From Nitrospira sp. (lineage in GTDB: Bacteria; Nitrospirota; Nitrospiria; Nitrospirales; Nitrospiraceae): a stretch of DNA of 64,000 bases. The stretch spans positions 24,151-88,150 of the forward strand of contig BQWY01000002.1 in NCBI GenBank assembly GCA_036984305.1. Direction: 5' to 3'. Positions 20,408 through 36,642 of the stretch are shown piece after piece; positions within the stretch are counted from its first letter, which is position 1; every line of letters begins with the position of its first letter. Position numbers and translations under genes: made by a program. A model generated the notes under the pieces. That model worked only from the letters and a program-made list of their open reading frames with translations, was not told where the DNA came from and made no database searches.

Positions 20408-20435
20408 GTGGTTATGTCGTACCGACACCCTGATC

Positions 20436-20451
20436 GAGACGCCTTTGTCCC
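20436..20451 (-). promoter_or_regulatory. GGGAC-AAAGGC-GUCUC hexaloop hairpin (candidate P1)
   Basis: 5-bp stem including one G-U pair. Loop has A1 and G4. Lies 28 nt upstream of P2 and 15-20 nt downstream of the TATAAC -10. Confidence 0.55.
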
Positions 20452-20466
20452 AGGACGGTAGCAGGC

Positions 20467-20496
20467 GTTATAGCAGCCTCCCTCGCTCATTGTCAA
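20467..20496 (-). promoter_or_regulatory. sigma70-type promoter for the nadE unit
   Basis: Minus strand: TTGACA-18 nt-TATAAC. Located between the ureD stop (20560) and the leader hairpins. Confidence 0.6.
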
Positions 20497-20559: not shown

Positions 20560-21537
20560 TCAATACCGTCGCAGATCGGGACGCGGCCGGCCCCAACACA
20601 TGCCCCGCACCGCTTCCCACAGGCCCTCGTACAGCCTGGTCAATGCCGGACACGATCTCGCCAGCACCTTGACCACGATACCGGGCGCAGCGGACCTGGA
20701 GACGCCGGCCAGAACGCCCTGCCCTTCCCATGCCCGGGCACATGATCGAAGAGACGAGTCCAGTCGATCCCACGTGGCTTCCCCAATGGCATCTCCGATG
20801 ACGTAGAGCGAGGCGGAATAATTCCACTCGCCCATGACATCCGATGTCCCCTGCCAAAGCCCCGGCCTGGCGACCGCACGATCGATCAGCCGAGCCCCCG
20901 AAGCAACCTGCACGCATACGTCATTCGTGTAGTCGTCGAACGCCCACCGCTCACCCCGAGCAATTCGGCCGGCTGCCATCGCATCCCAGATGACGAGGGT
21001 CGCCCCCGGGGCAAGCTTCGCCTCGAGGCGTTGGACATACCGGGAACCCGCAAAGGGAATGGTCAGCTCAGGCATCCATTCGAGGATGCTCCCCTGCCCA
21101 AGCCGCAGCGAAACGTGCTGCGTCGCCGGAAGAGAAAGGGAACGATACACGCGCGTCGCCGAAGGTGACGAAACGACCACGTGCGCGTTGTCCTTCAGAT
21201 CAACGGCACAGGAGACCACATCCCCACCCACCAGGCCCCCCGACGGGTTGACCAGCCACGTCAACAGCGCGCGGCCATCGTCAAGCTCGATCGGCGGCAC
21301 AGAGTGCCAGGGACTGGTGCACCGGACCGCGTCCAGAACCGTGCGGTCGTGGCAGGAAGAAAATGAGAGCGCGAGCTCACCCAGGCGTCCGACGCTGTCC
21401 AGCGATGGAGCCGTCGGTGACGAGATGGAGGACTTCGATGGGATTAGCCTGGAGTGACGCGTTGCGGCAGCCCGTGCTCGACCCACCCCACCACGGCCGG
21501 CACGCCTTCGCCCGTTAAGAGATTCGTGAAGATCCAC
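20560..21537 (-). CDS. ureD: urease accessory protein UreD
   Basis: UreD-like sequence (GELALSF..., [12 protein letters not shown]). Position after ureG. Start is uncertain: GTG 21537 or GTG 21486, and both overlap the ureG 3' end. Confidence 0.8.
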
Positions 21538-22121
21538 GGCAATTCTCCGCGCATGACTCGGCTGTCCCGCTCCATGACCCCCAGGTCGGCCCCGACGTGC
21601 GGCGCTAAGTCGATCTTGTTGATCACGAGCAGATCGGACCTCGTGATGCCGGGACCACCCTTGCGCGGGATCTTGTCCCCTGCGGCCACATCAATGACAT
21701 AGATCACGCGGTCGACGAGTTCCGGGCTGAAGGTCGCGGCGAGGTTGTCTCCTCCGCTTTCCACGAACATGACCTCGACTTCAGGATGGCGATCCAACAG
21801 ATCATCCAATGCCGCCTGGTTATGAGAGGCATCCTCGCGAATGGCGGTGTGCGGACATCCGCCCGTCTCCACGCCGAGGATGCGATCCGCCGCTAGCGCG
21901 CCTCGTCGCGTCAGAAACTCTGCGTCTTCTCTGGTAAAAATGTCATTCGTGACCACGGCAAGACTGTACCGGTCTCGGAGTCGACGACAGAGCGCTTCGA
22001 GTAACGCCGTCTTCCCCGAGCCGACGGGGCCGCCGATTCCAATCACCGGAATTCCGCGCGCGCGAGCCTTGGTCGGGCGGCCCCCGTCGTGATGAAGGTG
22101 ATGAACGTGATATCCCCCCAT
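21444..22121 (-). CDS. ureG: urease accessory GTPase UreG with a His-rich N-terminus
   Basis: ATG 22121. N-terminus [15 protein letters not shown]-loop [16 protein letters not shown] and NKIDL motifs. Confidence 0.93.
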
Positions 22122-22156
22122 AACCTTGTCCTTTCGTAGTCGCCGAACGAGACCCG

Positions 22157-22870
22157 TTACGATCGAAACAAGCGATGTTCGAGGCCGCCGTGCCGCATTG
22201 CAAACAGGTCGTGCAGGGGCGTCCATCCGGCCATGACCTGATCTGCCGAGACCGTCACGCTGAGTTCGGCCAGCGCCGGCAGGCATCCCTTGAGCAGACG
22301 TTGGCCGGCTTGTTGCCCGAGCGGCAGAAGTTTCAGCGCCGCGGACACCGTGCCAACGAGCGAGTGATAGAGGAACCCGGCCACGGCATGCTCGCAGGAC
22401 CACCCCTGCGCGCCGAGCACGACCCCCAGTGCAACGGCCAGATGCCCGGGTGTGGACTTGGTTTCGACTGCCGTTGCAAAGTCGGAGACCATGCTAGGGG
22501 TTTCCGGCTCGTCCGACAGCATGCGAGCCACTTGTCGTCCCATCTGGCGACTAGCTTCCCTCGTCGCACTGCTGAGCTTCAAGCTTTCGAGTTCCCAGTC
22601 GCACTCGATCGCGTTCCTCACATCACCGTCTACGGCCGCCTGGCGGGCCCGGGCTACAGCCACAGCCTCCCGTGTCCCCAATCCAAATCGAAGATGCGTC
22701 TGGAGAAAGCTCTGGAGCTCGGCCTCAGCCTTTACCGCCCCACCTTGCACCGCCGCTTCCAGCCCCGACGAGTAGGCGAATCCTCCCGAGGGGAAAAAGC
22801 TATCGATAAGTCGAATGCCCTCCACCAGTTCAAGCGCCGTGAACCTGGTGAGAGGCCTGCGTGACCGCAT
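22157..22870 (-). CDS. ureF: urease accessory protein UreF
   Basis: UreF-like ([18 protein letters not shown]). ATG 22870 lies just after the ureC stop. Confidence 0.85.
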
Positions 22871-22887
22871 GGACACAATCCGTTCAC

Positions 22888-24615
22888 CTAGAAGAGGAAA
22901 TAGCGTTGCGCCATTGGCAGCACCTTGAGCGGATCGCAACTGAGGAGTTGGCCGTCGGCCCGCACTTCGTAGGTCTCGGGATCAACCTCCAAATGCGGCA
23001 TCGCGCTGTTGAGCTTCATGTCTCGTTTCGTAATCGTCCGACACTGCCCCACCGTCGCGATGCGCTTCTGCAATTCCAGTTGGGCGGGCACCCCCCGCTG
23101 CACACCGGCCGCCGAGAGGAAGGTCAGACTGGTCGAGTACGGCGCGCGCCCGAACGATCCAAACATAGGACGGGTGTACACGGGCTGCGGGGTGGGGATC
23201 GACGCGTTTGGATCTCCCATGGCGGCGGACATGGGAAATCCCCCCTTGATGACGATCTCAGGCTTGACGCCGAAGAACGCGGGTCTCCAGAGCACCAAGT
23301 CGGCCAACTTGCCGACCTCGAGCGAGCCGACTTCATGAGCGATGCCATGTGCGATGGCCGGGTTGATCGTATACTTTGCTATGTAGCGGCGTGCCCGAAA
23401 ATTGTCTTGCCGTTCTTCCCCGCCTACCATGTCGTTTTGAGCGAGATGGCCACGCTGGATCTTCATCTTGTGCGCCGTCTGCCACGTGCGGATGATGACC
23501 TCCCCCACACGTCCCATGGCTTGTGAATCGGACGACATCATGCTGATGGCACCCATGTCGTGCAGGATATCCTCCGCGGCAATGGTCTCACGACGTATCC
23601 TCGATTCGGCAAATGCCACGTCCTCCGGCACGCGGGGGTTTAAGTGATGACACACCATCAACATGTCGAGATGTTCATCCATCGTATTGACGGTGAACGG
23701 CATCGTGGGATTGGTCGACGACGGCAGCACGTTGGCCTCGCCGCAGATTTTGATGATGTCCGGCGCATGGCCCCCGCCGGCTCCTTCGGTGTGGAATGAA
23801 TGGATGGTGCGACCCTTGAAGGCCTTGATGGTGTCCTCGAGGAATCCCGCCTCGTTGATGGTATCGGTGTGGATCGCCACTTGCACGTCGTACTCCTCCG
23901 CGACGTCGAGACAGGTCGAAATCGCCGCGGGCGTCGTGCCCCAATCCTCGTGCAGTTTCAACCCGATGGCTCCGGCCTCGACCTGCTCCCGCAAGCCCTC
24001 CGGTCGAGCGGCATTGCCCTTCCCAAAGAATCCGAGATTAATGGGAAATCCGTCCGCGGCCTCCAGCATGCGTCCGATGTTCCATGCGCCTGGGGTACAC
24101 GTCGTCGCGTTGGTCCCGGTCGCGGGACCGGTCCCCCCTCCGAGCAACGTCGTGAGGCCAGCGGCAACAGCCTCGTACACGATCTGGGGACAGATGAAAT
24201 GGATATGACTGTCGATTCCGCCGGCTGTGACGATCCGCCCTTCGGCGGAGAGGGCTTCAGTGCCAGGACCGATCTCCATTCCCGGCGTCACCCCATCCAT
24301 AAGGTCCGGATTGCCGGCTTTGCCGATCCCGACAATGCGACCGTCACGAATACCGATGTCCGCCTTGACCACGCCCCAATAGTCGAGGATCACCGCGTTG
24401 GTGATGACCAGATCGAGTGCCCCCTGCGCACGCGTCGCCGTCGGGGACTGTCCCATCCCATCCCGGATGACCTTCCCTCCGCCGAACTTGGCTTCCTCAC
24501 CGGGAACGGTGAGATCGCGCATGACTTCGATGATCAAATCCGTGTCGGCGAGGCGTATGCGGTCTCCGGTCGTCGGACCATAGAGATCGACGTATTGACG
24601 ACGAGACAAGTTCAT
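22888..24615 (-). CDS. ureC: urease alpha subunit
   Basis: 575 aa. [42 protein letters not shown] and other canonical urease alpha motifs. Confidence 0.97.
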
Positions 24616-24684
24616 GACGAAACCTCAGACGAATTGTGCGCGACCTGACGGCAATGCGTTCGCCCCTCTTCCCACGATCCTGCC

Positions 24685-25149
24685 TTACGCCTTTGCCCGC
24701 GGAATGAAGCCTTGATCGTATGCAGCCGCCAAGGCCCTCGCTTTCACATCCACGTCGTCGAGCGAACCGTTCACCAGCCCGTTGATGCCGTAGACGACTC
24801 GCCTGCCCCCAAATGCCACGAGAGCGACTCGTTTCTCCTCTCCAGGTTCAAATCTCACGGCGGTTCCCGCCGGCGTCTGCAGCCGAAACCCATAGGCCTG
24901 CTCCCGATCGAACTGCAGCGCCCGATTGACTTCGAAGAAGTGGCAATGCGAGCCGACCTGAATCGGCCGATCGCCCGTATTGGCGACCGTCATCTGAATC
25001 GTCGGACGACCCGGCAGCGCCACGATGTCGCCCTCACCCAACAGAATCTCCCCAGGATGAACGTCGGCGGAGTGCCTCTCGGGCCGAGCGCCCATCCGCT
25101 TCCGAGCCGGCTTTGCACGCCGGGCCCGCTTGGTGATGTTCTTGGCCAT
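24685..25149 (-). CDS. ureB: urease beta subunit with a basic N-terminal extension
   Basis: Core [19 protein letters not shown]...[12 protein letters not shown] is canonical UreB. ATG 25149 follows the ureA stop and adds about 30 basic residues. The alternative ATG 25095 gives about a 10-aa extension. Confidence 0.9.
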
Positions 25150-25157
25150 GCCTCGCC

Positions 25158-25460
25158 TCATCGGATCGGTTGATGTACCGTCACCAGCTTGGTCCCGTCC
25201 GGGAAGGTCCCCTCCACCTGGAGTTCCGAGATCATGTCGGACACTCCCGGCATGACATCATGTCGCTTCAAAAGAGTGGCCCCGTAACTCATCAAGTCGG
25301 ACACCGATCGTCCATCGCGAATTCCTTCCAGAATGGCCGCTGTCAGGTAGGCCATTGCCTCAGGATGATTCAGCTTGAGTCCCCGAGCCTTCCGGTCTCG
25401 AGCCAGCTGCGCGGCCACATAGATCAGCAATTTGTCTTGCTCCCTGGGCGTCAGATGCAT
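25158..25460 (-). CDS. ureA: urease gamma subunit
   Basis: 100 aa. [35 protein letters not shown] is canonical. Confidence 0.96.
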
Positions 25461-25463
25461 CGC

Positions 25464-25865
25464 TCAGTCTCTCCGCAGTCGGTTCAACTCGACAAGCACG
25501 GCATGGGCGTCATGAAACAACGTGGCCCCTTCTGGTATGGTTCCCTTGTACAACCTGACCATCACTGACGTGCTCCGGGTCAACATCAAACTGTCGAAAC
25601 GTTCTCCCATCTCGAAGTAGTCATATCCTCGCTGAACTGTCAGTTCGGCGCAGCGCAGCCGCACAAAATCATCCACCGTCTTCTGCGACGTCAGCGCGCC
25701 GGCCGAGTAGCGGACCTGGAACTCGCTCTCCGTGAGCTGCGTGATATCCTGCCCGTCGGTCCTGTCGAGCGATTGATACGCGGTCGTGACGCACCCGCAC
25801 AATCCCACCAGCACGCAGACCATTATCGTGCCAAGGCGCGCCCGGATGACAAGTCCTGAGATCAC
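25464..25865 (-). CDS. hypothetical lipoprotein between urtE and ureA
   Basis: Signal plus lipobox (MVCVLVGLCGC). Ends 4 nt before the ureA start. Start is GTG 25865 or ATG 25823. Confidence 0.6.
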   Translation of the reverse strand: MISGLVIRARLGTIMVCVLVGLCGCVTTAYQSLDRTDGQDITQLTESEFQVRYSAGALTSQKTVDDFVRLRCAELTVQRGYDYFEMGERFDSLMLTRSTSVMVRLYKGTIPEGATLFHDAHAVLVELNRLRRD

Positions 25866-25877
25866 GACGCGTCTCTC

Positions 25878-26588
25878 TTATACCACCAGATGCTGTCTGA
25901 CCACGTCGTCGCTCAATTCTCCGGAGTTGCCGGCTGCCACTACCGCCCCTTTTGCCATAATGACATAGGCATCGGCAAGCCGGGCGGCAAAGTGCAAGCC
26001 CTGCTCCACCAGTAGGATGGCAAAACGGCGCTGAGCTTTGAAGCCGATGATCACGTCTTCAATTTGGTCGACCACCGACGGCTGAATCCCTTCGGTCGGT
26101 TCATCAAGCAGCAACACCTTGGGATTGGTCAGCAACGCACGCGCAATGGCGAGTTGTTGCTGTTCGCCGCCGCTCAAAACGCCGCCCGGACGATCGAGAA
26201 TCTGTTTCAATTTTGGGAAAAGTGAAAACACTTCCTCGAAGGCCGCTGATTCCGTCTGCGCGCTGTCCACATCGGCTCTCGCCCATAGGCCCAGTTTGAG
26301 ATTCTCGCGAACGGTCAGATGCGGCAAAATTTCGCGCCCCTGCGGCACGAATCCCAAGCCATACCCCACGCGCCGGTCTGGGGTCGCTTTCGTGATGTCG
26401 GATCCATTGAAGCTGACCTGCCCGCTCCTGACCGGAATGAGCCCCATGATCGCCTTGAGCGTAGTCGTCTTGCCGACGCCGTTGCGCCCCATCAGGCAGA
26501 CGACTTGTCCGGAGTCCACGTCAAACGTGACATTCCGCAGGATATGACTCTCGCCGTAATACGCGTTGACGCCATCGAGTCGCAACAT
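25878..26588 (-). CDS. urtE: urea ABC transporter ATP-binding protein UrtE
   Basis: LivF-like ATPase (GRNGVGKTT, LSGGEQQQL, LLLDEP) at the fifth position of the urt operon. ATG 26588 is preceded by GAAGGG. Confidence 0.88.
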   Translation of the reverse strand: MLRLDGVNAYYGESHILRNVTFDVDSGQVVCLMGRNGVGKTTTLKAIMGLIPVRSGQVSFNGSDITKATPDRRVGYGLGFVPQGREILPHLTVRENLKLGLWARADVDSAQTESAAFEEVFSLFPKLKQILDRPGGVLSGGEQQQLAIARALLTNPKVLLLDEPTEGIQPSVVDQIEDVIIGFKAQRRFAILLVEQGLHFAARLADAYVIMAKGAVVAAGNSGELSDDVVRQHLVV

Positions 26589-26672
26589 AGCGCCCTTCAC
26601 CCTTCGACAGACGATGACGGCCGTTGAGCAAGCGTGCGTTTGGCGACGCCGTTCGCCAGTTCGTGCCGGTCG

Positions 26673-27440
26673 CTAGACGTGGGCGACCTTTTGCCGGCCT
26701 AGGTAGATCTCGCGCACGCGATCATCGGCCTGCACGGTTTCCACGGTTCCTTCGCAGATCACCGTTCCCTCGTGCATCACCGTCACCACCCGTGCGATCT
26801 GTCGTACGAATTCCATATCATGCTCAATCACCACAATGGCGTGCTCCTGCGCTAGGGACAGCAGGAGTTGGCCGGTTTGCTCGGTCTCTCGGTCGGTCAT
26901 CCCCGCCACCGGTTCGTCTACGAGAAGGAGCGACGGGTCCTGCAAGAGGACCATGCCGATTTCCAGCCATTGTTTCTGCCCATGTGACAACGATCCGGCA
27001 CGCGTGTGCCGATAGTCCGGCAACCCGATTGTCTCCAATACTCCCTCGATGCGATCCTGTTCCGGTTTTGTCGTAAGCCCTCTGAGCGTGGCCCATACGC
27101 CCTTGCTGGGACGCTTGAGCGACAGGTCGAGATTCTCCCACACGGTCAAATTGGCGTAGATCGACGGCGCTTGGAACTTCCGGCCGATGCCCAGCGAGGC
27201 GATCTCGTGCTCCCGCAGCGGTAAGAGATCCGTATCGTGGCCAAAGATCACTCTGCCCGCAACCGGCTTCGTCTTTCCCGATATGACGTCCAGCAAGGTC
27301 GTCTTCCCCGCTCCATTGGGACCAATCACGACCCGTAGTTCTTTGTACCCTACGATGAAATTCAGGCAGTTCAACGCTTTGAATCCGTCGTAGTCGACGG
27401 TGACCCCTTCGAGATAAATGATCGAACCATGATCCGTCAT
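26673..27440 (-). CDS. urtD: urea ABC transporter ATP-binding protein UrtD
   Basis: LivG-like ATPase ([26 protein letters not shown]). ATG 27440 overlaps the urtC stop (ATGA). Confidence 0.88.
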   Translation of the reverse strand: MTDHGSIIYLEGVTVDYDGFKALNCLNFIVGYKELRVVIGPNGAGKTTLLDVISGKTKPVAGRVIFGHDTDLLPLREHEIASLGIGRKFQAPSIYANLTVWENLDLSLKRPSKGVWATLRGLTTKPEQDRIEGVLETIGLPDYRHTRAGSLSHGQKQWLEIGMVLLQDPSLLLVDEPVAGMTDRETEQTGQLLLSLAQEHAIVVIEHDMEFVRQIARVVTVMHEGTVICEGTVETVQADDRVREIYLGRQKVAHV

Positions 27441-28588
27441 GTGAGAATCCACTTGCCAGGGCTCGATCCCTTGGCGATTTCCGATTGCTCGGGACGGACC
27501 CAGATCTTGACCCGTCCCCACAATCCGACGATCCCATCCGGCACGAATAAGACCACGGCAACAAACAGTCCCCCGAGTAAGAACGGCCACAGTTCAGGGA
27601 AGTAATTCGTCAACACGCTCCGCCCCCAATTGACGCCGATTGCCCCGATAATCGCCCCAATCAAGGTCCCTCGTCCACCAACCGCCACCCAAATCACCAT
27701 CTCCAGCGAGGGGAGGACCCCGATCTGCGCCGGAGTAATGATTCCGACTTGAGGCACATACAACGCCCCGGCGAGCCCCGCGAGGGCAGCAGAGACCACG
27801 AACACGAACAGCTTGTACTGGGCCGGTGAATACCCCGAAAACAACACGCGCTGCTCGCTGTCTCGAATCGCGACCAGCACTTTCCCCGCCCGGGATTGCA
27901 CGATGGCTCGACAGAGGATATAGGCCACGCCCAGACACACGACCGTGAACAAATAGAGCGACCGCTGTGTCCAAGGCTCGCTCAGGCGGAACCCCAAGAG
28001 CAGCTTGAAATCGGTGAGTCCGTTCGTCCCTCCGAGATTCGTCTCATTGCGGTTGAAAACCAGCCAGGCACAGAGCGCCAACGCTTGGGTGATGATGGCG
28101 AAATATACGCCTTTGATACGGCTTCGAAACGCCAGCGAACCGAAGACAAACGCACAGGCCGCCGGCACCATGAGCGCCCCGAGAACGGCAACGGGGAAAT
28201 AGTGAAATGGCTTCCAAAACAGCGGCAACTCCTGCACCTGGTTCCAGACCATGAAGTCGGGCAGCGCGCTCCCGTACACGCTCTCCGTCCCGATCGAGAG
28301 CGCCATGTACATCCCCATCGCATAGGCCCCCAGGCCGAAAAAGACACCATGACCGAGGCTCAGAATGCCTGCATAGCCCCAGATCAGGTCCAACCCCAGT
28401 GCAAGGATGGCGAACGAAAGGAACTTACCGAATCGATTGAGTGAGAAATCGGATACATGCCACCATGAATCGGCCGGAGGCACGATATTCAGCCCTGGAA
28501 GTACCACCAAAAACACGGCTGCCATGATCCATACGCCGGGGCCCACTTGCAGGCCACGTCGCTGGTCATTGGGCTCAGGATTCGGCAT
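27437..28588 (-). CDS. urtC: urea ABC transporter permease UrtC
   Basis: 383 aa LivM-like polytopic permease in urt context. Confidence 0.87.
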   Translation of the reverse strand: MPNPEPNDQRRGLQVGPGVWIMAAVFLVVLPGLNIVPPADSWWHVSDFSLNRFGKFLSFAILALGLDLIWGYAGILSLGHGVFFGLGAYAMGMYMALSIGTESVYGSALPDFMVWNQVQELPLFWKPFHYFPVAVLGALMVPAACAFVFGSLAFRSRIKGVYFAIITQALALCAWLVFNRNETNLGGTNGLTDFKLLLGFRLSEPWTQRSLYLFTVVCLGVAYILCRAIVQSRAGKVLVAIRDSEQRVLFSGYSPAQYKLFVFVVSAALAGLAGALYVPQVGIITPAQIGVLPSLEMVIWVAVGGRGTLIGAIIGAIGVNWGRSVLTNYFPELWPFLLGGLFVAVVLFVPDGIVGLWGRVKIWVRPEQSEIAKGSSPGKWILT

Positions 28589-30155
28589 GGCGTCCTTTGA
28601 TGGCGAACAGCCCGGAGGGCCGGCGTTGTAGAAATAGCACCACTAGCAGGAGAATCGTGACCTTGGCATATACGGCTCCCATGCTCGGTTCAAAAACTTT
28701 GTTGAGGCCGCCGATGCCAAGCGCCGCCGCAATCGTACCGGCAAGCTTTCCGACGCCACCGGTTACGACGACCATGAAGGAATCGACGATATAGTTCTGC
28801 CCAAGGCCAGGCTCCACATTCCCGATCAGTGTGAGCCCCCATCCCGCAAGTCCTGCAAGCCCGGAGCCGAAGGCAAAGGTATATGCATCGACCTGGCGAG
28901 TCGGGATTCCCAGGCACGCACTCATGTTCCGATTCTGCATGACCGCCCGGACCCGAAGGCCAACTCGCGTGCGGAACAGGAGCGCGTAGATCGCCATCAC
29001 GCTCACCGCCGAGAGCACGATCAAGAAGAGCCGGTTGTACGGGACGAACACGCCAACCATCACCTGCACCCCTCCACTGAACCATGCCGGCGCCGTCACC
29101 GCGGTCAGGTCTCCGAACATGACACGGGCCGACTGAATCAAGATCAAACTGACGCCCCACGTCGCCAACATCGTTTCCAGGGGCCGACCATACAAGAAAC
29201 GAATCACGGACATCTCCAAGAGCAAACCGACCAGAGCGGCCGCGAGAAACGAGCAGGGCAACGCCGCCCAAAAATACCAGTCGAACACCTCGGTGGGCAA
29301 ATACGCTTTGAAGAGTTCCTGGGTGACGAACGTCGCATAGGCCCCGATCATCATCAACTCGCCATGGGCCATGTTGATGACGCCCATGAGGCCAAAGACG
29401 ATCGCCAAGCCCAACGCCATCATTAGGAGGATGGAACTGAGGCTCAACCCGTGAAAAAGCGTTTCGAACACTCCAGCCCACACGCCCCACCGTTCGGTTT
29501 GCTCGATGGCCTGGTGGGCCGTGGCCAATACGTCCGGGCTCGGCTGGCCGCTCCCTGCGCCTGTGGTCTCTGATTCGTCGGCATTCGCCTCTTCGACCAG
29601 CTCCTTCAAACGCGGCAGTCCATTGGGGCTGGCCAGATCGCCCAGCGTACGCACGGCCTCCACTTGTTGCTGGGTGGTACCATGTGCCAGACGAATCAGC
29701 GCGAGTGATTCTCGTAGCGCGTAGCGGACCCATCGATGCGACTCCGAGACCAGCTGGCTCTCGAGCCACGGTACCGCGAGTGGGCTTCCCACCGAACCCA
29801 GATCCGTGGCCGCTGCACGCCGCACTTCTGGGTCGTCGTCGCCAAGCTTCGCGCGATTTTTCAGCAAGTCCAAAACGGGCTTGAGCGCCCGGCGCGTCGA
29901 CCGGTCCGCCTCCTCGCGCAATGCCTCCAACTGTGACAGCAAGTTTGGATCGGAAGATTCGACCAACTCGGCGGTCGCCGCCTCTTGCTCGGCGGGATCC
30001 TCCGCCGTCAACCGAGCAATCGTATGCTCGAGACCGGCGACGGGAGTCACCCCACCGCCGGTCTCGGCCCAACTCCCCGCCGGCCATGCCAACCAGAGCC
30101 ACGCTAGGGCGATCCCGGCCAACACCCGCACCACGGCTCTAGTCGGTTGCCTCAT
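28575..30155 (-). CDS. urtB: urea ABC transporter permease UrtB with an N-terminal HEAT-like periplasmic domain
   Basis: C-terminal LivH-like permease. The N-terminal roughly 200 aa has a signal peptide then helical repeats (DPEVRRAAATDLGSVGSPLAVPWL...). ATG 30155 lies after the urtA stop. Confidence 0.85.
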   Translation of the reverse strand: MRQPTRAVVRVLAGIALAWLWLAWPAGSWAETGGGVTPVAGLEHTIARLTAEDPAEQEAATAELVESSDPNLLSQLEALREEADRSTRRALKPVLDLLKNRAKLGDDDPEVRRAAATDLGSVGSPLAVPWLESQLVSESHRWVRYALRESLALIRLAHGTTQQQVEAVRTLGDLASPNGLPRLKELVEEANADESETTGAGSGQPSPDVLATAHQAIEQTERWGVWAGVFETLFHGLSLSSILLMMALGLAIVFGLMGVINMAHGELMMIGAYATFVTQELFKAYLPTEVFDWYFWAALPCSFLAAALVGLLLEMSVIRFLYGRPLETMLATWGVSLILIQSARVMFGDLTAVTAPAWFSGGVQVMVGVFVPYNRLFLIVLSAVSVMAIYALLFRTRVGLRVRAVMQNRNMSACLGIPTRQVDAYTFAFGSGLAGLAGWGLTLIGNVEPGLGQNYIVDSFMVVVTGGVGKLAGTIAAALGIGGLNKVFEPSMGAVYAKVTILLLVVLFLQRRPSGLFAIKGRHAES

Positions 30156-30172
30156 TGAATCGCTTCGTCGCC

Positions 30173-31543
30173 CTACTTCTTTTTGTAGGTACCCTGATGC
30201 GCAACCCAATCGCATCCCTTGTCTGGATTGGTATACTCACTCCAGGGCTCCGGTTTGACGAGTCCCTTCGAGCGCCAGATCGTCTTGAACTGGCCATCCT
30301 TGCGGATCTCTCCAATCAACACCGGTTTGTGGGTGTGATGATTCGCCGAATCCATCATGATCTCGCCGCCTGGGGCCAAGAACTTGCTGCCATAGACCGC
30401 CTTGCGCACCTTGTCCACCGCGGTCGAGCCAGCCTTCTCCACGGCTTGTTTCCACACATGCACCCCGAAGTAGGCGGCTTCGATCGGATCGTCCGTGACG
30501 CGATTGCCACCATCCGGCAGCTTGTTCTTTTCGCAATACGCCTTGAAGTTTGACACGAATTTTTTATTCTGCGGTGTATCGACGCTCTGGAAATAGTTCC
30601 ATGCCGCGAGGTGCCCCACCAACGGAGTCGTATCCATCCCACGCAACTCGTCTTCGGCGACGCTGAACGCCATGATCGGCGCATCCTCAGACCGAAGTCC
30701 TTGATTGGCGAATTCCTTGTAGAACGGAACATTGCTGTCTCCATTGATGGTGCTGATGACGCAGGCGCCGCCTCCGGCGGAAAATTTCTTAATCTTTCCG
30801 ACGATCGTTTGATAGTCCTGGTGATGAAAGGGCGTATACTCCTCCATGATATTGGCGGCTGCCACCTTCTTCGCCAACAACATGGCGCGAAGAATCTTGT
30901 TCGTCGTGCGTGGATACACGTAGTCAGTGCCCAACAGATAGAACTTCTTGTACTCGCCACCCTCCTTGCTCATGAGATACTCGACTGCCGGCACGGCCTG
31001 TTGATTGACCGCCGCCCCCGTATAGAAGACGTTGTGCGAGCATTCTTCGCCCTCGTATTGGACGGGGTAGAACAGCAAGCCGTTGTTCTTTTCGAATACG
31101 GGAAGCACTGATTTCCGGCTGACGGACGTCCAACACCCGAATACGACCGCCACCTTGTCCTGCAGGAGCAGACCCTTCGCCTTCTCCGCAAACAGATCCC
31201 AGTTCGACGCGGGATCCACCACCACCGGTTCGATCGGTCGTCCCATGACCCCGCCCTTGGCGTTGATCTCTTCGACAGCCATCATGACCACATCCCGCAG
31301 GGATACCTCGCTGATCGCCATCGTGCCGCTCAGCGAATGCAAGATACCGATCTTGATCGGTTCCTTCCCCGCTGCATATGACAATGCCCAATGTCCGAGG
31401 TTCCCCAGGAGCGCAGCCACACCGATCCCGGCCGCCGTTCGCCCCCCCTTGGACAAAAGTTCCCGACGGGAGAGGTTTTCAGGCCCGGCCTCGTCCGCAA
31501 GAGGCTTCTGTGTGTCGGTCGTCGTTTCGTTAATAGGTTTCAT
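30173..31543 (-). CDS. urtA: urea-binding periplasmic protein UrtA (Tat signal)
   Basis: 456 aa. SRRELLSKGGRTAAGIGVAAL signal. LivK/amide-binding fold sequence. AAGGAG before the ATG. Confidence 0.9.
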   Translation of the reverse strand: MKPINETTTDTQKPLADEAGPENLSRRELLSKGGRTAAGIGVAALLGNLGHWALSYAAGKEPIKIGILHSLSGTMAISEVSLRDVVMMAVEEINAKGGVMGRPIEPVVVDPASNWDLFAEKAKGLLLQDKVAVVFGCWTSVSRKSVLPVFEKNNGLLFYPVQYEGEECSHNVFYTGAAVNQQAVPAVEYLMSKEGGEYKKFYLLGTDYVYPRTTNKILRAMLLAKKVAAANIMEEYTPFHHQDYQTIVGKIKKFSAGGGACVISTINGDSNVPFYKEFANQGLRSEDAPIMAFSVAEDELRGMDTTPLVGHLAAWNYFQSVDTPQNKKFVSNFKAYCEKNKLPDGGNRVTDDPIEAAYFGVHVWKQAVEKAGSTAVDKVRKAVYGSKFLAPGGEIMMDSANHHTHKPVLIGEIRKDGQFKTIWRSKGLVKPEPWSEYTNPDKGCDWVAHQGTYKKK

Positions 31544-31568
31544 CGTTCGACTCCTTTTGCTTCTCGGC

Positions 31569-32951
31569 TTAGAAGTTGTACCACCAGGACAGCATGAAGT
31601 TGTCGCCTTGATTCTGGTCTCCAGTTGTCCAGTGCGTCATGAGGTGATTCCACTCCAGTCCGGTATAGAAGTCTCCCCACAGATGTCGGACCGCTGTCAG
31701 ATAGAACCGGTGGTTCAGCAGATATTGGGTATCGGGCCCGGCGGTGGTCCCGGCAAGGTCGGAGTTAAACGGATTGTCGAACCCGTACCCACCGACGAAG
31801 GTATACTTATGAGAGTGGGCATAGTTTAATTCCGCCCATCCCACCATCGTCCGAATCACCTTACCGGTGCCAAGGTTCCGTTCCTGCCCGTAACGAAACC
31901 ATTCCACGCCTAATCCCTGCCCGTAGGCAATTTCACCCGTGAACTTCAGGCGGCTCGTAATGGGCACGACTAACTCGCCGCCGACCACGAATGATTGGAT
32001 ATCCTGTCCAGACGGAATCCCACCGGTTGCCGCGGTGGGAGCGGATCGGTAGTACCGATAGGCCGCATTGGCGGCGATCATGAAACCCTGCTGTTTCCCG
32101 GTGCCGGTGTAGGCCCAGCGCGTTCCCACATACGGCATTTGCACAGGATCGTTGAAGGCGTTCTCCGAACAGGCAAACGCCCCGGTTGGATTCGTACAGC
32201 TCACCGGAGGCGATCCGCCGACGGCGCTTCCCGTGAAGGGCCGCCGCTGTGTCTGCGGCTGGATGGCAGAAAGACCGCGCTCAAACCGCATAACCGTCAA
32301 CAAACCATCCACATGGTCGCTGAATCGATGTTTTAACGTGATTTGCGGCAAGCGCTGCCAGAGATTGCCGTTGTACCCCATGATCGAGAAATCGATGAGA
32401 TTGGGGTGCAATCCCATGATCGGCGTCCAATCTTGCCCGACCGTCAACGTGGATCGCCCATTGTTGGGCGAGTACTTGACGTTGGCCAAACGCAAGCGCG
32501 GGAGAATGTTGCCTGCATTGTCCGTTTGCCCGTAAAAATCTGTCTCAACCACACCGGACAGCGAATGTTTGCCATCCGTTCGATCAGCGCGCAATCCGAA
32601 TACGCTGTATCGCGGATTGAGCGTGCTGCTGCTGTTCGAACTCGTTCCGGCCGCCGTGGCATACCCGTTGAACTGCCCCGGGTCCAGTGGGTTATTATTT
32701 CTCGTACTGTAAATGGCGTCCAATTCGACCCGCCCGTAGGGACTGATGCTGCCTTTTCCGTCCGTGGGAAACGCCGGTGCAATGCATCCTGCGCAAAGAA
32801 TCGGGGGCGGCGTCTCTTCTTCGCGGATGAGACGTCCCGCTCCTGCCGCCTCTTCCGCACTCTGCTCTTCGGCATAGGCCCCGGGCACCGCCACCAGCGT
32901 GGCAATGATCAGCACCCCCAACCACTTTCGATACATACCGTCCGCATTCAT
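31569..32951 (-). CDS. outer-membrane porin, likely urea/short-chain-amide selective (FmdC-like by position)
   Basis: Signal peptide (LGVLIIATLVAVPGAYA). Beta-rich sequence ending in the ...WWYNF C-terminal OMP signature. First gene of the urt unit. AGGAGG lies 9 nt before ATG 32951. Confidence 0.75.
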   Translation of the reverse strand: MNADGMYRKWLGVLIIATLVAVPGAYAEEQSAEEAAGAGRLIREEETPPPILCAGCIAPAFPTDGKGSISPYGRVELDAIYSTRNNNPLDPGQFNGYATAAGTSSNSSSTLNPRYSVFGLRADRTDGKHSLSGVVETDFYGQTDNAGNILPRLRLANVKYSPNNGRSTLTVGQDWTPIMGLHPNLIDFSIMGYNGNLWQRLPQITLKHRFSDHVDGLLTVMRFERGLSAIQPQTQRRPFTGSAVGGSPPVSCTNPTGAFACSENAFNDPVQMPYVGTRWAYTGTGKQQGFMIAANAAYRYYRSAPTAATGGIPSGQDIQSFVVGGELVVPITSRLKFTGEIAYGQGLGVEWFRYGQERNLGTGKVIRTMVGWAELNYAHSHKYTFVGGYGFDNPFNSDLAGTTAGPDTQYLLNHRFYLTAVRHLWGDFYTGLEWNHLMTHWTTGDQNQGDNFMLSWWYNF

Positions 32952-33006: not shown

Positions 33007-33047
33007 AAAAAAAAACGCCCTTCCGGCCCATTTGGACCAAAAGGACG
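33007..33047 (-). terminator. intrinsic terminator C (T2) in the porin-urt leader
   Basis: Minus strand: CGUCCUUUUGGUCC-AAAU-GGGCCGGAAGGGCG (14 bp including G-U pairs) followed by U9. Lies about 55 nt upstream of the porin start codon. Confidence 0.8.
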
Positions 33048-33056
33048 CCGTTGTCC
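33043..33056 (-). promoter_or_regulatory. GGAC-AACGGC-GUCC hexaloop hairpin overlapping the 5' arm of terminator C (candidate P2)
   Basis: Read directly. Loop has A1 and G4. Its 3' arm is shared with the terminator stem. Confidence 0.6.
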
Positions 33057-33070
33057 TCATGTGAACTTGG

Positions 33071-33104
33071 AAAAAAATCGTCGTGGAACCACGCTGTTCC
33101 ACGA
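33071..33104 (-). promoter_or_regulatory. UCGUGGAAC-AGCGUG-GUUCCACGA hexaloop hairpin followed by CGAU7 (candidate P1, itself terminator-like)
   Basis: Perfect 9-bp stem. Hexaloop has A1 and G4. A U7 tract follows 3 nt after the stem, so it may act as a first attenuator. Confidence 0.55.
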
Positions 33105-33128: not shown

Positions 33129-33158
33129 CTTGTATCGGATCGCTCTCTTGGTTGTCAA
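33129..33158 (-). promoter_or_regulatory. sigma70-like promoter for the porin-urt-ure unit
   Basis: Minus strand: TTGACA-17/18 nt-(A)TACAAG, about 25 nt upstream of the first leader hairpin. Confidence 0.4.
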
Positions 33159-33251
33159 TGGGTTTCTTCTTATCTGCACTCCTGTGGTACACTGCGGCAA
33201 ACCACGAAGTGCCCAGCCGTCCTCATGATGTTTGGGTACCCCCCAGCACAC

Positions 33252-34256
33252 ATGCACATTTTTACGTCCATTTTTCCGTGGCAGCTGGTCACGGGCTCTC
33301 TCCTCTGCCTAATCACGTTTCACGGTTGTGGACTGCTTTCCTCTTCCCGAACAGGGCTCTACGACGGACCTCGGGGACGCGTCTATCTCGAAACCGTCCC
33401 TGAGCGAGGCGCAAGCGGCGGCGTTGGGGTGCGGACTGGCTTGGATGCGTCACATCCCGCTCTCATCGAACCTGATGTGATCGCATCGCTTCTGAGAGGT
33501 CTTCAGATCAAAGAAACCTCAAGTTTCGGTGCGTTGTTGGACACGTCCGGAACGCCACGGCCGATCTTTACCAAGGAAGAGGCCGCTTTTTTGGCTCCGC
33601 TCCTGAGCTCGGCCTTGGCGAAGGCCTCTCCTTCCCAATTTGTCGTGTTTGAACTCCAGCAGCCACCGACCGGTTATCGCGCAAAGCGGGTTCCTGGAGC
33701 CGGAGCCGGCTCGTCCATTCCCAGTCCCGAACAGGTGAGCACAGAGGAAACCTCGGGGGCGCTGTACGTCTTTGGCCGCTCGTTGCACGCCGTGTTGACG
33801 AAATTCCGTTACGTGCCCGACCCACCCGACACGATCCGGATGGCCAATCGTCTCCTGCCGGATCCCACCGGTCTGGCCGAGTACAAGGTGTCCTTCTCTC
33901 CGGCGGCCGCTCTTCGACCAGATACGTATGCTCGCGAGGCACTGCCGGTTTCAGACGAACTACCCTCGTTTGTCATCGACTATCAAGCACTCCCCAGTTT
34001 GGTCGTAACGCCCGCCCCTGCGCCCGGGGCGTCGCAGGCATCCGGGACCACGTCCGCACCTGCGCCGTCGCGGCCGGCAAGCGCAGAGACCCCACCCCAG
34101 AATCAAATTCGTGAATTGAAAGATCTTGTTGTCGAGAAGGATCTGGAATTGGAACGATTGCGGAAAGAACTTGAACAGCTGAAACGGCGGCCGCCGACAC
34201 CGGGGCAGGCCCCTTCGAAAGTACCACCTGGCGGAAAAGTTACTCCCGCGCCGTAG
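33252..34256 (+). CDS. hypothetical secreted protein/lipoprotein with a C-terminal coiled coil and Pro-rich tail
   Basis: In-frame part of the 637-aa ORF that does not overlap the porin gene. Hydrophobic N-terminus with ...LLCLITFHGC. C-terminus IRELKDLVVEKDLELERLRKELEQLKRRPPTPGQAP. Start is uncertain (ATG 33225, 33228 or 33252) and has no clear SD. Confidence 0.5.
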   Translation: MHIFTSIFPWQLVTGSLLCLITFHGCGLLSSSRTGLYDGPRGRVYLETVPERGASGGVGVRTGLDASHPALIEPDVIASLLRGLQIKETSSFGALLDTSGTPRPIFTKEEAAFLAPLLSSALAKASPSQFVVFELQQPPTGYRAKRVPGAGAGSSIPSPEQVSTEETSGALYVFGRSLHAVLTKFRYVPDPPDTIRMANRLLPDPTGLAEYKVSFSPAAALRPDTYAREALPVSDELPSFVIDYQALPSLVVTPAPAPGASQASGTTSAPAPSRPASAETPPQNQIRELKDLVVEKDLELERLRKELEQLKRRPPTPGQAPSKVPPGGKVTPAP

Positions 34257-34265: not shown

Positions 34266-35534
34266 CTAGGATGCCGTCCCTGCCCCGCCAGCCTGCCCGT
34301 CGATCTCTCCGGCCAGTAAAATGGCCTCAGCAACCTCACGCATCGATTTACGCATCGCCATGCTTTGCCGTTGAATGAGGCGGAACGCCTCCTCCTCCGA
34401 GAGTCGCCGTGTCCGCATAATATAGCCCTTCGCGCGCTCCACCACTTTGCGCACCGCGAGTGCCTCCTGCATCTCGAAGGACTTGTCGATCAGCGTCGTG
34501 TGCTCGATCGCGATGGCCGCTTGATTGGCGATAGCCTGAAGGATCTTCGTTTCCTCGTTGGTGAACTCATGGGGAACGGAGGTGTAGGTGTTGATGACGC
34601 CGACGACCTTTTCTCGGACCAGCATCGGAACGGACAACAGGGAATAGAGTCCTTCGCGCCGTGCCAGATCTGGATACATGAAATCGTGATCTGTTGTGAC
34701 GTCCGGCACCATGATGGGGCGCCGTTCCTGCACGGCGCGACCACTGATGCTCTGGCCGACCCGCAGGTTTGGCTTGCGCCGATAGGCTTCGCTGAGGCTT
34801 TGGGTTGCCACGATTCGCAGTTCGCCCTTGTCGTGATCCAGCACCATGATCGAGCAGATCTTTGAGTTCATGAGTTGCGCAACCATCGCAACGATCAGTT
34901 GGAAGACGTCCTCAATCAATCGATTGGAGGTCACCGTTTCGGAAACCTGTGACAACGTCTCGACCTGAAGAGCCTTGCGCCGCATCTCTTCATAGAGTCG
35001 GGCATTCTCGATGGCTCCGCCCACCTGATTGGCAATCGTGGTCAGCAGGGCCAGTTCGTCTGTACCGTACCGGCGCGGTCGCTTGTGCTGCACATTGATG
35101 ACCCCGACCACTTCCTTCTTGGTCAAGATGGGCACGGACACAAACGCCTGATAGCGGTCTTCCGGCAAGTTGTGAAAAAACTTGAAGCGTGGATCGTCAC
35201 TGGCGCTGCTGGGAATGACAACGCTGGTCCGCTCTCGGGCGACCCACCCTGTGATACCTTCACCCAATCCGATCGTAATTCTGCCAATCAGGCGAGGATG
35301 CGGATTTTTCGATGCCCGCAGAACCAACTCATGCTTGTCCGCGGACAAGAGATAGAGCAGGCAAGCGTCGCATTTAGTCACCTCGACCACCACATCCACG
35401 ATATGGCGGAGGACCGCCGCGAGATCAAGGGTGTTGCTGATGGAGTCGCTGATACGATGTAGCACCTCGACTTCGCGCGTTTTGGTGCGCAAAGCGTGTT
35501 GGATTCGCTGCGTCGAATTGGAACTACGTTTCAT
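34266..35534 (-). CDS. GAF-GAF-ANTAR RNA-binding antitermination regulator
   Basis: Two GAF-like blocks (LEVLHRISDSISNTLDL...GITGWV; LSQVSETVTSNRL...). C-terminal ANTAR-like helix bundle (ALAVRKVVERAKGYIMRTRRLSEEEAFRLIQRQSMAMRKSMREVAEAIL). ATG 35534 lies 8 nt after the aroB stop. Confidence 0.8.
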   Translation of the reverse strand: MKRSSNSTQRIQHALRTKTREVEVLHRISDSISNTLDLAAVLRHIVDVVVEVTKCDACLLYLLSADKHELVLRASKNPHPRLIGRITIGLGEGITGWVARERTSVVIPSSASDDPRFKFFHNLPEDRYQAFVSVPILTKKEVVGVINVQHKRPRRYGTDELALLTTIANQVGGAIENARLYEEMRRKALQVETLSQVSETVTSNRLIEDVFQLIVAMVAQLMNSKICSIMVLDHDKGELRIVATQSLSEAYRRKPNLRVGQSISGRAVQERRPIMVPDVTTDHDFMYPDLARREGLYSLLSVPMLVREKVVGVINTYTSVPHEFTNEETKILQAIANQAAIAIEHTTLIDKSFEMQEALAVRKVVERAKGYIMRTRRLSEEEAFRLIQRQSMAMRKSMREVAEAILLAGEIDGQAGGAGTAS

Positions 35535-35541: not shown

Positions 35542-36642
35542 CTAATCCCGGGTCCGTGTACGATACCACCGCGCGAACGTTGACCGTCCGATCGGTGCGA
35601 TCCGCACGGCTCCGATTCGTTCAGGCCATACACCATGAACCTGGCCCTGCACCACCTTTTTGTCGTGCTGCATCGCGTCCCACAGCTGGCGCTCGGTGCA
35701 TCGCGGCAGACGGCTTGGCAACCCGGCGGCCTCCACCAATGTGAGGATACGTTCCGGCACGTCCAACCGGCAGTAACCGAGCTTGTGCGAGATCCACGCT
35801 TCCTGCACCATTCCTATGGCCACCGCCTCACCGTGAATCAACGCGCGATAGTGTCCGAGCGTCTCCAATGCATGCCCGATCGTGTGTCCGTAGTTCAGGA
35901 TACGGCGACGATCGCCTTCCCGTTCGTCCGATGCCACGACCTCGGCCTTGATCTCACACGAACGCTGAATGATCTTCGCAATCGTGTCTTCATCCATCTT
36001 CAGGACGCTGGACATCGTCCGCTCGAGATACACGAAGAATTCCTGGTCGGCAATGACACCATATTTGATAACCTCCGCCACTCCCCCGAGCCGCTGTCGA
36101 AGCGGCAATGTCCGAAGGGTAGACGGATCGACCAGTACGGCGCGCGGCTGGTAGAAAGCACCGATAAGATTCTTCCCTTGGGGGTGGTTAATGCCGGTTT
36201 TTCCCCCGACACTAGAATCGACCTGGGCCACCACAGTGGTGGGTACCTGGACAAAGGGGATCCCGCGCAGGTAGCTCGCTGCGGCAAATCCCGTCAAGTC
36301 ACCGACAACCCCACCGCCGAGCGCAACGAGAAACGAACTGCGCTCCAGCCGGGCTTCCACGAAGCGGTCCAACACCCGCCCAAGCCAAACGAGGCTCTTG
36401 GCTCGTTCGCCGGCTGGCACCGTCACCAGCTGCGCGCCCAACCCCGCCCGCCGAATGGACCGTACGGCTGTCGGAGCATAGAGTCCCCCCACGGTCCGAT
36501 CGGTTACAATGCATACGGTTCCCTTGGCGCCGAGACGCCGGAGATGCCCTCCAAGCTCTCCGAGCAAACCGGATTGAATGGTGATGTCATAGCTACGATC
36601 GCCAAGGACAACCGGCACCGATATGGAAGCCATTGCCGTCAT
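35542..36642 (-). CDS. aroB: 3-dehydroquinate synthase
   Basis: AroB motifs (GGGVVGDLTGFAA, GGKTGINHPQGKNLIGAFYQP, LNYGHTIGHA). Start is ATG 36642 or 36633. The upstream 76 codons of the ORF look non-coding. Confidence 0.9.
   Translation of the reverse strand: MTAMASISVPVVLGDRSYDITIQSGLLGELGGHLRRLGAKGTVCIVTDRTVGGLYAPTAVRSIRRAGLGAQLVTVPAGERAKSLVWLGRVLDRFVEARLERSSFLVALGGGVVGDLTGFAAASYLRGIPFVQVPTTVVAQVDSSVGGKTGINHPQGKNLIGAFYQPRAVLVDPSTLRTLPLRQRLGGVAEVIKYGVIADQEFFVYLERTMSSVLKMDEDTIAKIIQRSCEIKAEVVASDEREGDRRRILNYGHTIGHALETLGHYRALIHGEAVAIGMVQEAWISHKLGYCRLDVPERILTLVEAAGLPSRLPRCTERQLWDAMQHDKKVVQGQVHGVWPERIGAVRIAPIGRSTFARWYRTRTRD

Follow-up and report, generated by a model that had tools for sequence, protein, structure and literature searches.

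A tandem-GAF ANTAR protein of Nitrospira as the likely antiterminator of hexaloop leaders before nitrogen operons

Control of nitrogen genes by ANTAR-dependent antitermination is well established for AmiR, NasR, NasT and EutV. Here we consider a candidate for this class from Nitrospira sp., encoded in a stretch of 64,000 nucleotides (nt) of contig BQWY01000002.1 (positions 24,151 to 88,150; this whole stretch is the window in what follows), in which the gene for a GAF-GAF-ANTAR protein, hereafter the regulator, adjoins about 31 kb of nitrogen-uptake genes that lie on the same (-) strand in four transcription units. Before each unit lies one leader region of the dual-hexaloop/terminator type, the four regions together holding five attenuator units, and we consider it likely, on the strength of the sequence comparisons set out below, that the regulator is a one-component, metabolite-sensing transcription antiterminator of these leaders.

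The substrate of ANTAR proteins has been defined as a pair of hexaloop hairpins with A at loop position 1 and G at position 4 (A1/G4), of which the second, P2, lies within a terminator (Ramesh et al. 2012, PMC3369931; Walshe et al. 2022, PMC8934654). Dual hexaloops of this type are enriched before nitrogen genes and were predicted before genes for PII, ammonium transporters (amt), urea transporters and glutamine synthetase (GS) in many phyla, with one organism carrying 13 ANTAR elements in six units (PMC3369931), while in Geobacter GnfK/GnfR control the leaders of nifH, glnK and amtB (PMC2995071). An earlier note on this DNA, made by a model from the letters alone, knew of no description of such a regulon; taken as a claim that none exists, this is too strong in view of these two papers. 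On the protein side, no PAS- or GAF-ANTAR protein had been characterised as of 2012 (PMC3369931), the one-component ANTAR proteins characterised as of 2020 were NasR and the LOV protein PAL only (PMC7496416), and a 2025 review names GAF merely as an ANTAR architecture. In the literature searched we found no characterised GAF-ANTAR protein, no paper linking ANTAR or antitermination to Nitrospira and no account of nitrogen-assimilation regulation in Nitrospira, which is also absent from the text of the Ramesh 2012 supplement.

With EutV/EutW of Enterococcus faecalis the locus shares an ANTAR domain with G4-contacting residues, P1 and P2 hairpins with A1/G4 hexaloops, the overlap of P2 with a terminator and the presence of several attenuators per locus. 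It differs in its input, tandem GAF domains here as against the phosphorylated receiver domain of EutV, which serves ethanolamine genes; in having A2 of the hexaloop and the closing GAC/GUC additionally fixed; and in linkers that vary from 5 to 43 nt, where EutV allows for little variation. GnfK/GnfR of Geobacter sulfurreducens and the regulons predicted by Ramesh et al. in Desulfotomaculum acetoxidans and Pelobacter are alike in that ANTAR antitermination would serve several nitrogen units (glnK, amtB, PII, urea transporters, GS), but those systems have two-component REC-ANTAR or unassigned regulators rather than a one-component GAF-GAF protein. The regulator described here, moreover, adjoins its presumed targets across a whole order, and its putative regulon, which is that of a nitrifier, adds urease and cyanase, NadE and GlnD, and the octahaem nitrite-reductase module. 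NasR of Klebsiella oxytoca, whose ANTAR domain aligned with that of the regulator at E 1e-4, is likewise a one-component, ligand-sensing ANTAR antiterminator for nitrogen assimilation; in contrast to the regulator it has a NIT domain, which binds nitrate/nitrite, and it acts on a single operon (nasF). As for the genes themselves, the clustering of octahaem nitrite reductase (ONR) with amt/glnK/glnA in Nitrospira was already known (PMC5767232), as was the expression of onr without ammonium (PMC12342949), and the published clusters of N. moscoviensis and N. japonica (ONR/NirA by amtB, glnK and glnA; urease, cyanase) match the present one in gene content and clustering, whereas the regulator, the leaders and antitermination are not mentioned in those papers.

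The regulator gene and its domains are as follows:

34266..35534, (-) strand: regulator gene, GAF-GAF-ANTAR, 422 amino acids (aa); Pfam, orthologues 70-89% identical across Nitrospirales, AlphaFold2 (AF2) model
35010..35426, (-) strand: GAF1, aa 37-175, PtsP/EI-Ntr-like; PDB, NCBIfam and Foldseek matches
34503..34916, (-) strand: GAF2, aa 207-344, NifA/Nlh1-like; NCBIfam and PDB matches
34317..34472, (-) strand: ANTAR domain, aa 355-406, following a long helix (aa 326-376); PF03861, EutV alignment and model

The Pfam models GAF, GAF_2 and GAF_3 match the two sensor stretches, at about aa 37-175 and 207-344, with E values of 2e-49 to 2e-34, and PF03861 matches aa 355-406 over profile positions 3-54 of 54 at 69 bits, against a gathering score of 27.3 (E 2.9e-19). 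This bears out the two GAF blocks and the ANTAR domain that the earlier note had read from the sequence, and the C-terminal peptide it quoted is present. Pfam found no NIT, Response_reg, Sigma54_activat, HTH or PEP-utiliser domain in the regulator, the ANTAR domain of which resembles those of Rv1626, EutV and NasR. The start codon at 35534 fits the orthologue lengths of 418-423 aa; a longer open reading frame (ORF) from 35636 was set aside as the start because these orthologues align from residue 1. In an AF2 monomer model (34-sequence alignment, mean pLDDT 77.5), a structure prediction having been among the checks the note had proposed, the tandem-GAF fold appears with long linker helices: an N-terminal helix, GAF1, a 40-residue helix, GAF2 and a 50-residue helix that runs into a C-terminal three-helix unit (helices 326-376, 380-394 and 398-417, pLDDT about 84-88 there). 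The whole model matches the tandem-GAF modules 1mc0 (PDE2A), 1ykd (CyaB2) and 3lfv (PDE5) in Foldseek (E 1e-15 to 5e-19), with a relative GAF orientation that is unreliable in these matches (rmsd, root-mean-square deviation, 14-21 Å).

The RNA contacts of EutV were mapped onto the regulator by ungapped alignment to 6wsh, with residue roles taken from PMC8934654:

R362, at EutV R142
K363, at EutV K143
R367, at EutV K147
K369, at EutV K149
E380, at EutV E160
F384, at EutV Y164
M392, at EutV M172
R395, at EutV R175
Q388, at EutV R168 (differs)
A393, at EutV N173 (differs)
S397, at EutV R177 (differs)

Eight of the 11 contacts are thus kept or conservatively swapped, including the G4 contacts (R, K, E and the aromatic residue) and the Met plug. 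Since R362, K369, E380, F384, M392 and R395 match R142, K149, E160, Y164, M172 and R175 of EutV, the residues that would read the flipped G4 are, on this alignment, in place.

The four units downstream have the gene content and order that had been given for them (Pfam/NCBIfam):

20560..32951, (-) strand: unit 1, putative porin, urtABCDE, CC0125-type lipoprotein, ureA, ureB, ureC, ureF, ureG, ureD; Pfam/NCBIfam
12516..20282, (-) strand: unit 2, nadE (glutamine-dependent), amt, glnK, glnD, glnA; Pfam
7040..12294, (-) strand: unit 3, three-gene NrtA/CynA-type (NMT1_2) ABC transporter, cynS, amt; Pfam
2403..6742, (-) strand: unit 4, 68-aa ORF, amt, Rieske protein, cytochrome b, multihaem (octahaem-type) cytochrome c; Pfam/NCBIfam

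The porin of unit 1 is an outer-membrane-like protein with a signal peptide and without a family match, and for the multihaem cytochrome c of unit 4 the ONR role is taken from the literature (PMC5767232, PMC12342949). The earlier note had given ANTAR-type leaders to three units; they are present before each of the four, in four regions with five attenuator units, element 4 not having been listed. The elements, with their E values in the covariance model R1 described below, and two of the promoters are:

33011..33104, (-) strand: leader element 1, before unit 1; P1 UCGUGGAAC-AGCGUG-GUUCCACGA, P2 GGAC-AACGGC-GUCC, overlapping terminator and U9; E 1.8e-6
20357..20452, (-) strand: leader element 2, before nadE; P1 GGGAC-AAAGGC-GUCUC, P2 GGAC-AAUGAC-GUCC, terminator and U9; E 6.9e-10
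12349..12443, (-) strand: leader element 3a, unit 3; P1 GGUUUGGC-AACGAC-GCCGGACU, P2 ACGGAC-AAAGGC-GUCCGU, terminator; E 2.4e-4
12247..12336, (-) strand: leader element 3b, in tandem with 3a; P1 GUGAGAC-ACUGAA-GUCUCAC, P2 GGAC-GACGGC-GUCC, terminator and U9; E 1.3e-3
6771..6862, (-) strand: leader element 4, unit 4; P1 UCGAC-AAUGCG-GUCGA, 5-nt linker, P2 GCCGGC-AAAGGC-GCCGGC, terminator and U6; E 0.54
33129..33158, (-) strand: sigma-70-like promoter of unit 1, TTGACA-N18-TACAAG, by eye; TTGACA...TAnAAG also in orthologous leaders
20467..20496, (-) strand: sigma-70-like promoter of unit 2, TTGACA-N18-TATAAC, by eye

A descriptor was written for pairs of hairpins, each with an [A/G]NNGNN loop and a stem of 4 bp or more, separated by a linker of 2-50 nt and joined to a terminator whose stem, of 6 bp or more, begins within the 3' half of the second hairpin or adjacent to it and is followed by T5. 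The full descriptor returns exactly five units in the window, against a mean of 0.4 in 30 first-order Markov shuffles. Nine of the ten hexaloops are ANNGNN, the exception being the P2 loop GACGGC, and in 5/5 units the terminator takes its 5' arm from the 3' half of P2. Moreover, the 12-mer GACRANGRCGTC has five matches in the window (0.27 expected), all on the (-) strand and all within three intergenic leaders. The minimum-free-energy fold of the full leaders is the terminator, with z-scores of -4.4 to -7.2, and leaders truncated before the terminator 3' arm fold as P1 plus P2. The four terminators caught by a terminator scanner rank best in 40 kb; that of the nadE leader was missed by the scanner and is seen in the leader fold. 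P1 and P2 are 22-27 nt apart in four window units but 5 nt apart in element 4; leaders from other genomes have linkers of 19-43 nt. By eye, promoters (TTGACA/TTGACG, 16-18-nt spacer) lie 7-25 nt 5' of P1 in three of the four leader regions, unit 3 having a weaker -10 box, GGTAAG; a promoter scanner flagged none of these promoters, because each -10 box has G or C as its last base. No such hexaloop element was found 5' of the regulator or of aroB in the window, and no attenuator inside the intergenic gaps of unit 2 or in the cynS-amt gap of unit 3.

A riboswitch was rejected as a reading of the leaders, in which Rfam has no family, at gathering scores or at E <= 1, and the conserved parts are only two small protein-type hairpins; the only Rfam hits were a urease-antisense match and a weak match to P11. 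The latter, a Pseudomonas small RNA (sRNA), is matched below threshold at 12354-12499 (-), with 27.5 bits against 70 (E 0.047), over element 3a and its promoter. Unit 3 (ABC-cynS-amt) carries two complete attenuators in tandem, the other units single ones; the tandem would make the response of unit 3 steeper or AND-like.

Relatives of the regulator were sought in one genome per GTDB species, and at least 593 were found, the best 80 of which are all from Nitrospirales and 70-89% identical. Of more than 7,600 database relatives, the best 120 are 78-89% identical and come from Nitrospira/Nitrospiraceae wherever the source gives a name. In Ca. N. bockiana, in Nitrospira sp. Kam-Ns4a and in the closest metagenome-assembled genome the gene order is rpoN-hpf-rapZ-pilMNOPQ-aroC-aroB-regulator-(leader)-nadE-amt-glnK-glnD-glnA, and the regulator-nadE spacers of all three hold a TTGACA promoter, P1, P2 and a terminator, with P1 stems that differ around the same AAYGRY loops. 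Mapping by tblastn placed nadE-(amt-glnK)-glnD-glnA or porin-urtABC 3' of the regulator, on the same strand, at nearly every locus with enough flank, and orthologues of leader element 2 are present in loci L001, L003 and L004. The adjacency reaches beyond the order: in L086 the gene for a 48%-identical homologue precedes TTGACA, GGGC-AACGCG-GCCC, then GGAC-AGUGAC-GUCC together with a terminator, and finally amt. Further distant homologues are encoded no more than 10 kb from glnA, nadE, glnK and amt, with AAGAC-AAYGRN-GUCUU hairpins before glnA. Full-length distant homologues usable from the representative search numbered only two, P0168 (50% identity) and P0254 (41%), the rest being dominated by giant multi-GAF proteins. 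In two distant low-GC homologue loci, L094 (9737-9765) and L100 (9736-9784, +), a hairpin AAGAC-AACGGY-GUCUU stands about 150-250 nt 5' of the regulator gene itself, which hints at autoregulation in those lineages.

We then asked how far the leaders themselves are conserved, using a covariance model, R1, whose 36 seed leaders all came from other genomes and none from the window. Run on the 64-kb window, R1 recovers four of the units (E 6.9e-10, 1.8e-6, 2.4e-4 and 1.3e-3), with no other match below E 0.5. Across 82 Nitrospirales loci, where the regulator is 70-89% identical, it gives 64 matches (E <= 0.01) in 58 of the loci, 62 of them on the regulator strand, and all 64 lie 3' of the regulator stop, with none in equally long (about 10 kb) upstream flanks. 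The two opposite-strand matches stand together in a single rearranged locus (L028, 12368-12517, -), where nadE is followed by the lipoprotein gene, and probably belong to an inverted nitrogen operon. Applied to the same loci, the descriptor gives 63 matches on the regulator strand and three on the other. In the 36 leaders, which had been filtered for pairing, four of the six P1 pairs change on both sides, in 39 cells as against 9.9 in shuffles, no shuffle attaining the observed score. Six-base loops with A1 and G4 are found in these leaders also, and loop positions 1, 2 and 4 are invariant, position 2 not being required by the filter. Nine more loci, missed by R1 and picked up by eye or regular expression, have P2 and a terminator: eight are from marine/sponge-type Nitrospirales and one has masked bases, and all nine show a promoter, GGACAAAGGCGTCC and a terminator between regulator and nadE, with a divergent P1. 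The marine/sponge-type spacers (L062-L073, L084) keep promoter, P2 (GGACAAAGGCGTCC) and terminator, show no hexaloop P1 that can be recognised, and lead directly into nadE-glnD without amt-glnK; they may be a single-hairpin variant of the switch.

Lasting adjacency of a regulator and a cis element is the usual signature of a cognate pair, and comparative genomics supports the link between regulator and leaders. Backed by this regulator-leader-operon adjacency across Nitrospirales and beyond, the regulator is, in our judgement, quite probably the partner of the leaders, and the same adjacency backs the coordination by one GAF-ANTAR protein of urea, cyanate and ammonium uptake, urease, GS/PII/GlnD, NadE and the octahaem module, as the earlier note had suggested. 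The leaders could, however, be genuine ANTAR attenuators whose true partner is a different ANTAR protein encoded elsewhere, for example a REC-ANTAR protein of the NasT/GnfR type, with the GAF-GAF-ANTAR protein having other targets or sharing the work. The nitrogen-linked ANTAR regulators characterised so far are indeed REC, pseudo-REC or NIT types, and the regulator would be transcribed with aroB rather than with nitrogen genes. We nevertheless regard this as unlikely, since promoter and leader stay directly 3' of the regulator from 89% down to 70% identity, despite an operon that may be either nadE or porin-urt, and do so again with the 48%-identical homologue, and since every R1 match lies on the 3' side.

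What the regulator might sense was approached through its GAF domains. In E. coli, Sinorhizobium and Caulobacter the GAF domain of EI-Ntr is responsive to glutamine and 2-oxoglutarate; for the GAF domain of NifA, the ligand in Azotobacter is 2-oxoglutarate, while in other diazotrophs the input comes from PII. GAF1 is nearest in the PDB to 3e0y, a Geobacter GAF of unknown function (E 1.6e-26), and to the PtsP GAFs 3ci6 (E 5.9e-22) and 3trc; its best NCBIfam match is PRK11061 (PtsP), positions 5-164 of 748, at E 6.8e-42 and 143.6 bits against a cut-off of 583, and its model superimposes on 3ci6 with a target-normalised TM-score of 0.85-0.88 and an rmsd of 2.1-2.3 Å (Foldseek). GAF2 matches TIGR01817 (nifA) positions 2-213 at E 2.1e-30 and 106 bits against a cut-off of 528.85, as well as the Nlh1 GAF 4g3k (E 1e-8). 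The kinship is thus at the level of domains: the regulator was rejected as PtsP/EI-Ntr, and likewise as NifA, because the GAF part alone matches and it has neither the PEP-utilising enzyme I domains of the former (the phosphotransferase-system, or PTS, enzyme I) nor the Sigma54_activat (AAA+ sigma-54 activator) and HTH domains of the latter, its predicted output being RNA binding. For this reason 'signal transduction protein with GAF and PtsI domain', its name at JGI, is misleading. Because GAF1 is most like the PtsP GAF and GAF2 most like that of NifA, glutamine, 2-oxoglutarate or PII appears more likely as the signal than the nitrite, cyanate and urea guessed at in the earlier note; that it is glutamine or 2-oxoglutarate specifically is a tentative assignment.

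It is also conceivable that the hexaloops are bound but that action is post-transcriptional, on translation or mRNA stability, or that the protein reads a signal different from nitrogen status, for example cyclic nucleotides, redox state or contact with PII without a small ligand. The best full-length structural matches are the tandem GAFs of PDE2A, CyaB2 and PDE5, which bind cyclic nucleotides; GAF2 is weakly similar to the GAFs of DevS/DosS and NorR; distant homologues have a single hexaloop hairpin before glnA, with no obvious terminator; and translational control by ANTAR proteins is reported in mycobacteria (bioRxiv 10.1101/660928). Set against this, every P2, in the window and in Nitrospirales, overlaps a canonical terminator with a U-run, and the closest relatives at domain level are the PtsP and NifA GAFs rather than cyclic-nucleotide-binding ones, which leaves this explanation a slim chance, slightly smaller than that of another ANTAR partner. 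We reject as very improbable the idea that these hairpin/U-run structures are normal terminators at the operon ends of ureD, glnA and amt, accompanied by chance hairpins, with the GAF-ANTAR protein an unrelated neighbour. In its favour, each element also stands 3' of a preceding operon, besides 5' of the next, and the terminators are strong by themselves. Against it, P1 is separated from the preceding stop codon by a conserved promoter, TTGACA-N17/18-TAnAAG; the leader is also present where the regulator itself or a convergent gene is the upstream neighbour; the porin leader is preceded by a divergent gene and no operon end; the AANGNN hexaloops are invariant while P1 stems covary; and the five units observed compare with 0.4 expected.

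Several observations weigh against the regulator as antiterminator of these leaders. The P2 stem GGAC/GUCC is invariant across Nitrospirales, with four of five pairs never varying and no covariation; within the window, a compensatory variant (CCGGC/GCCGG) occurs in element 4 only, and this element, with its 5-nt linker, is marginal in R1. The seed leaders of R1 were pre-selected by a descriptor that requires pairing, which inflates the percentage of paired cells. Marine lineages are without a recognisable P1, and about 15 of the 82 loci are without an element, most of them short-flanked, although L029, L040 and L074 have 10 kb. In the protein, three EutV contacts are changed (R168 to Q, N173 to A, R177 to S), all of them backbone contacts; the regulator and the operons presumed to be its targets are not transcribed together; and the ligand assignment draws only on similarity at the domain level (29% identity to the PtsP GAF).

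Taking the regulator as the antiterminator, the switch would work as follows. The protein would be made from the aroB transcript and would dimerise through the linker helices of the tandem GAF and the coiled coil before ANTAR. Each of the four units would start at a sigma-70-like promoter, with unit 4 possibly reached by read-through from unit 3, and the first ~100 nt of the transcript could form either a strong intrinsic terminator or P1 and P2 with AANGNN hexaloops, P2 sharing its 3' half with the terminator as the latter's 5' arm. Without protein the terminator would win, because it is the more stable fold. An active ANTAR dimer would bind P1 and then P2 and would prevent P2 from opening before RNA polymerase is beyond the U-run; the operon would thereby be transcribed. 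As a weaker suggestion, the signal would most likely be nitrogen status, sensed as scarce glutamine and/or abundant 2-oxoglutarate or through PII contact, and read-through would be switched on in nitrogen limitation; the circuit would feed back on PII signalling because glnK and glnD lie in the regulon. The mechanism as such, canonical ANTAR antitermination, is already known, nitrogen regulons under ANTAR control having been on record since 2010-2012; what would be new is the one-component tandem-GAF input and a regulon that takes in GS/PII/GlnD and nearly the whole of nitrogen acquisition in a group of central ecological importance.

The genes around the regulator include:

35542..36639, (-) strand: aroB (3-dehydroquinate synthase); Pfam DHQ_synthase and DHQS_C
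33240..34256, (+) strand: convergent lipoprotein-like gene between regulator and porin operon, 47% identical to the same-position gene in L004

The aroB stop codon, TAG, is at 35544-35542, and the regulator follows directly, as had been noted, with a 7-nt spacer to its ATG instead of the 8-nt gap given earlier. With aroB directly 5' of the regulator in 78/78 loci, and a 4-nt overlap of the two genes in N. bockiana, the co-transcription that had been proposed appears plausible. Farther upstream in the window lie pilMNOPQ, rapZ, hpf, rpoN and lptB. In L001, L003 and L004 aroC stands between pilQ and aroB; a tblastn search did not find it anywhere in the window, the pilQ-aroB interval of which holds about 550 nt (36640-37190) without a recognised gene. 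On the other side, the regulator is the first (-) gene upstream of the porin operon, as claimed, but it does not head the cluster as one contiguous transcript: the convergent (+) gene, which its conservation shows to be real, lies between. The regulator therefore closes the aroB unit, and the porin operon is served by a promoter of its own. The product of the convergent gene has no Pfam or NCBIfam family match, shows a Pro/Ala-rich region and a coiled-coil tail, recurs at the corresponding position in many Nitrospira loci and is duplicated in L008 and L009. Three further features lie within the nitrogen units. The 68-aa ORF at 6536-6742 (-), which follows leader element 4, has no family match and a stop that overlaps the start of the third amt (ATGA); it may encode a small regulatory or accessory protein of unit 4. 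UrtB (28575-30215, -; 546 aa) has a HEAT_2 repeat region at aa 87-172, N-terminal to the permease domain. The Rfam match to 5_ureB_sRNA (RF02514) at 24174-24469 (+), 86.8 bits, runs antisense to ureC (22888-24615, -); it probably reflects the conserved urease alpha-subunit coding sequence used for the Helicobacter antisense model and is no evidence of an sRNA.

Nitrospira are the dominant nitrite oxidisers, and the complete ammonia oxidisers, of soils, waters and treatment plants. Judged from conserved gene order and leader motifs, the regulator is probably the nitrogen master switch of these nitrifiers. In a bolder form, which we put forward as possible but doubtful, the PtsP-like and NifA-like tandem GAF would read glutamine and/or 2-oxoglutarate directly, and the regulator would be the master nitrogen regulator of Nitrospirales by transcript elongation alone, with constitutive sigma-70 promoters, replacing NtrBC/sigma-54. 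The targets of such a master regulator would be GS, PII, GlnD, NadE, three Amt proteins, urea and cyanate use and the octahaem nitrite reductase. On this bolder reading, no GAF-ANTAR protein before it would have had both its ligand and its regulon defined, and the family would extend to other phyla with the same GAC-AANGNN-GUC hairpin code. If the regulator does act on these leaders, one conserved protein and a 14-nt RNA hairpin code would explain how urea, cyanate, ammonium and nitrite assimilation are switched on, Nitrospira transcriptomes could be read through read-through at defined terminators, and a simple motif would predict the nitrogen regulon in any metagenome-assembled Nitrospirales genome. 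It would also be the first tractable GAF-ANTAR protein in which to study the coupling of a small-molecule sensor to RNA binding.

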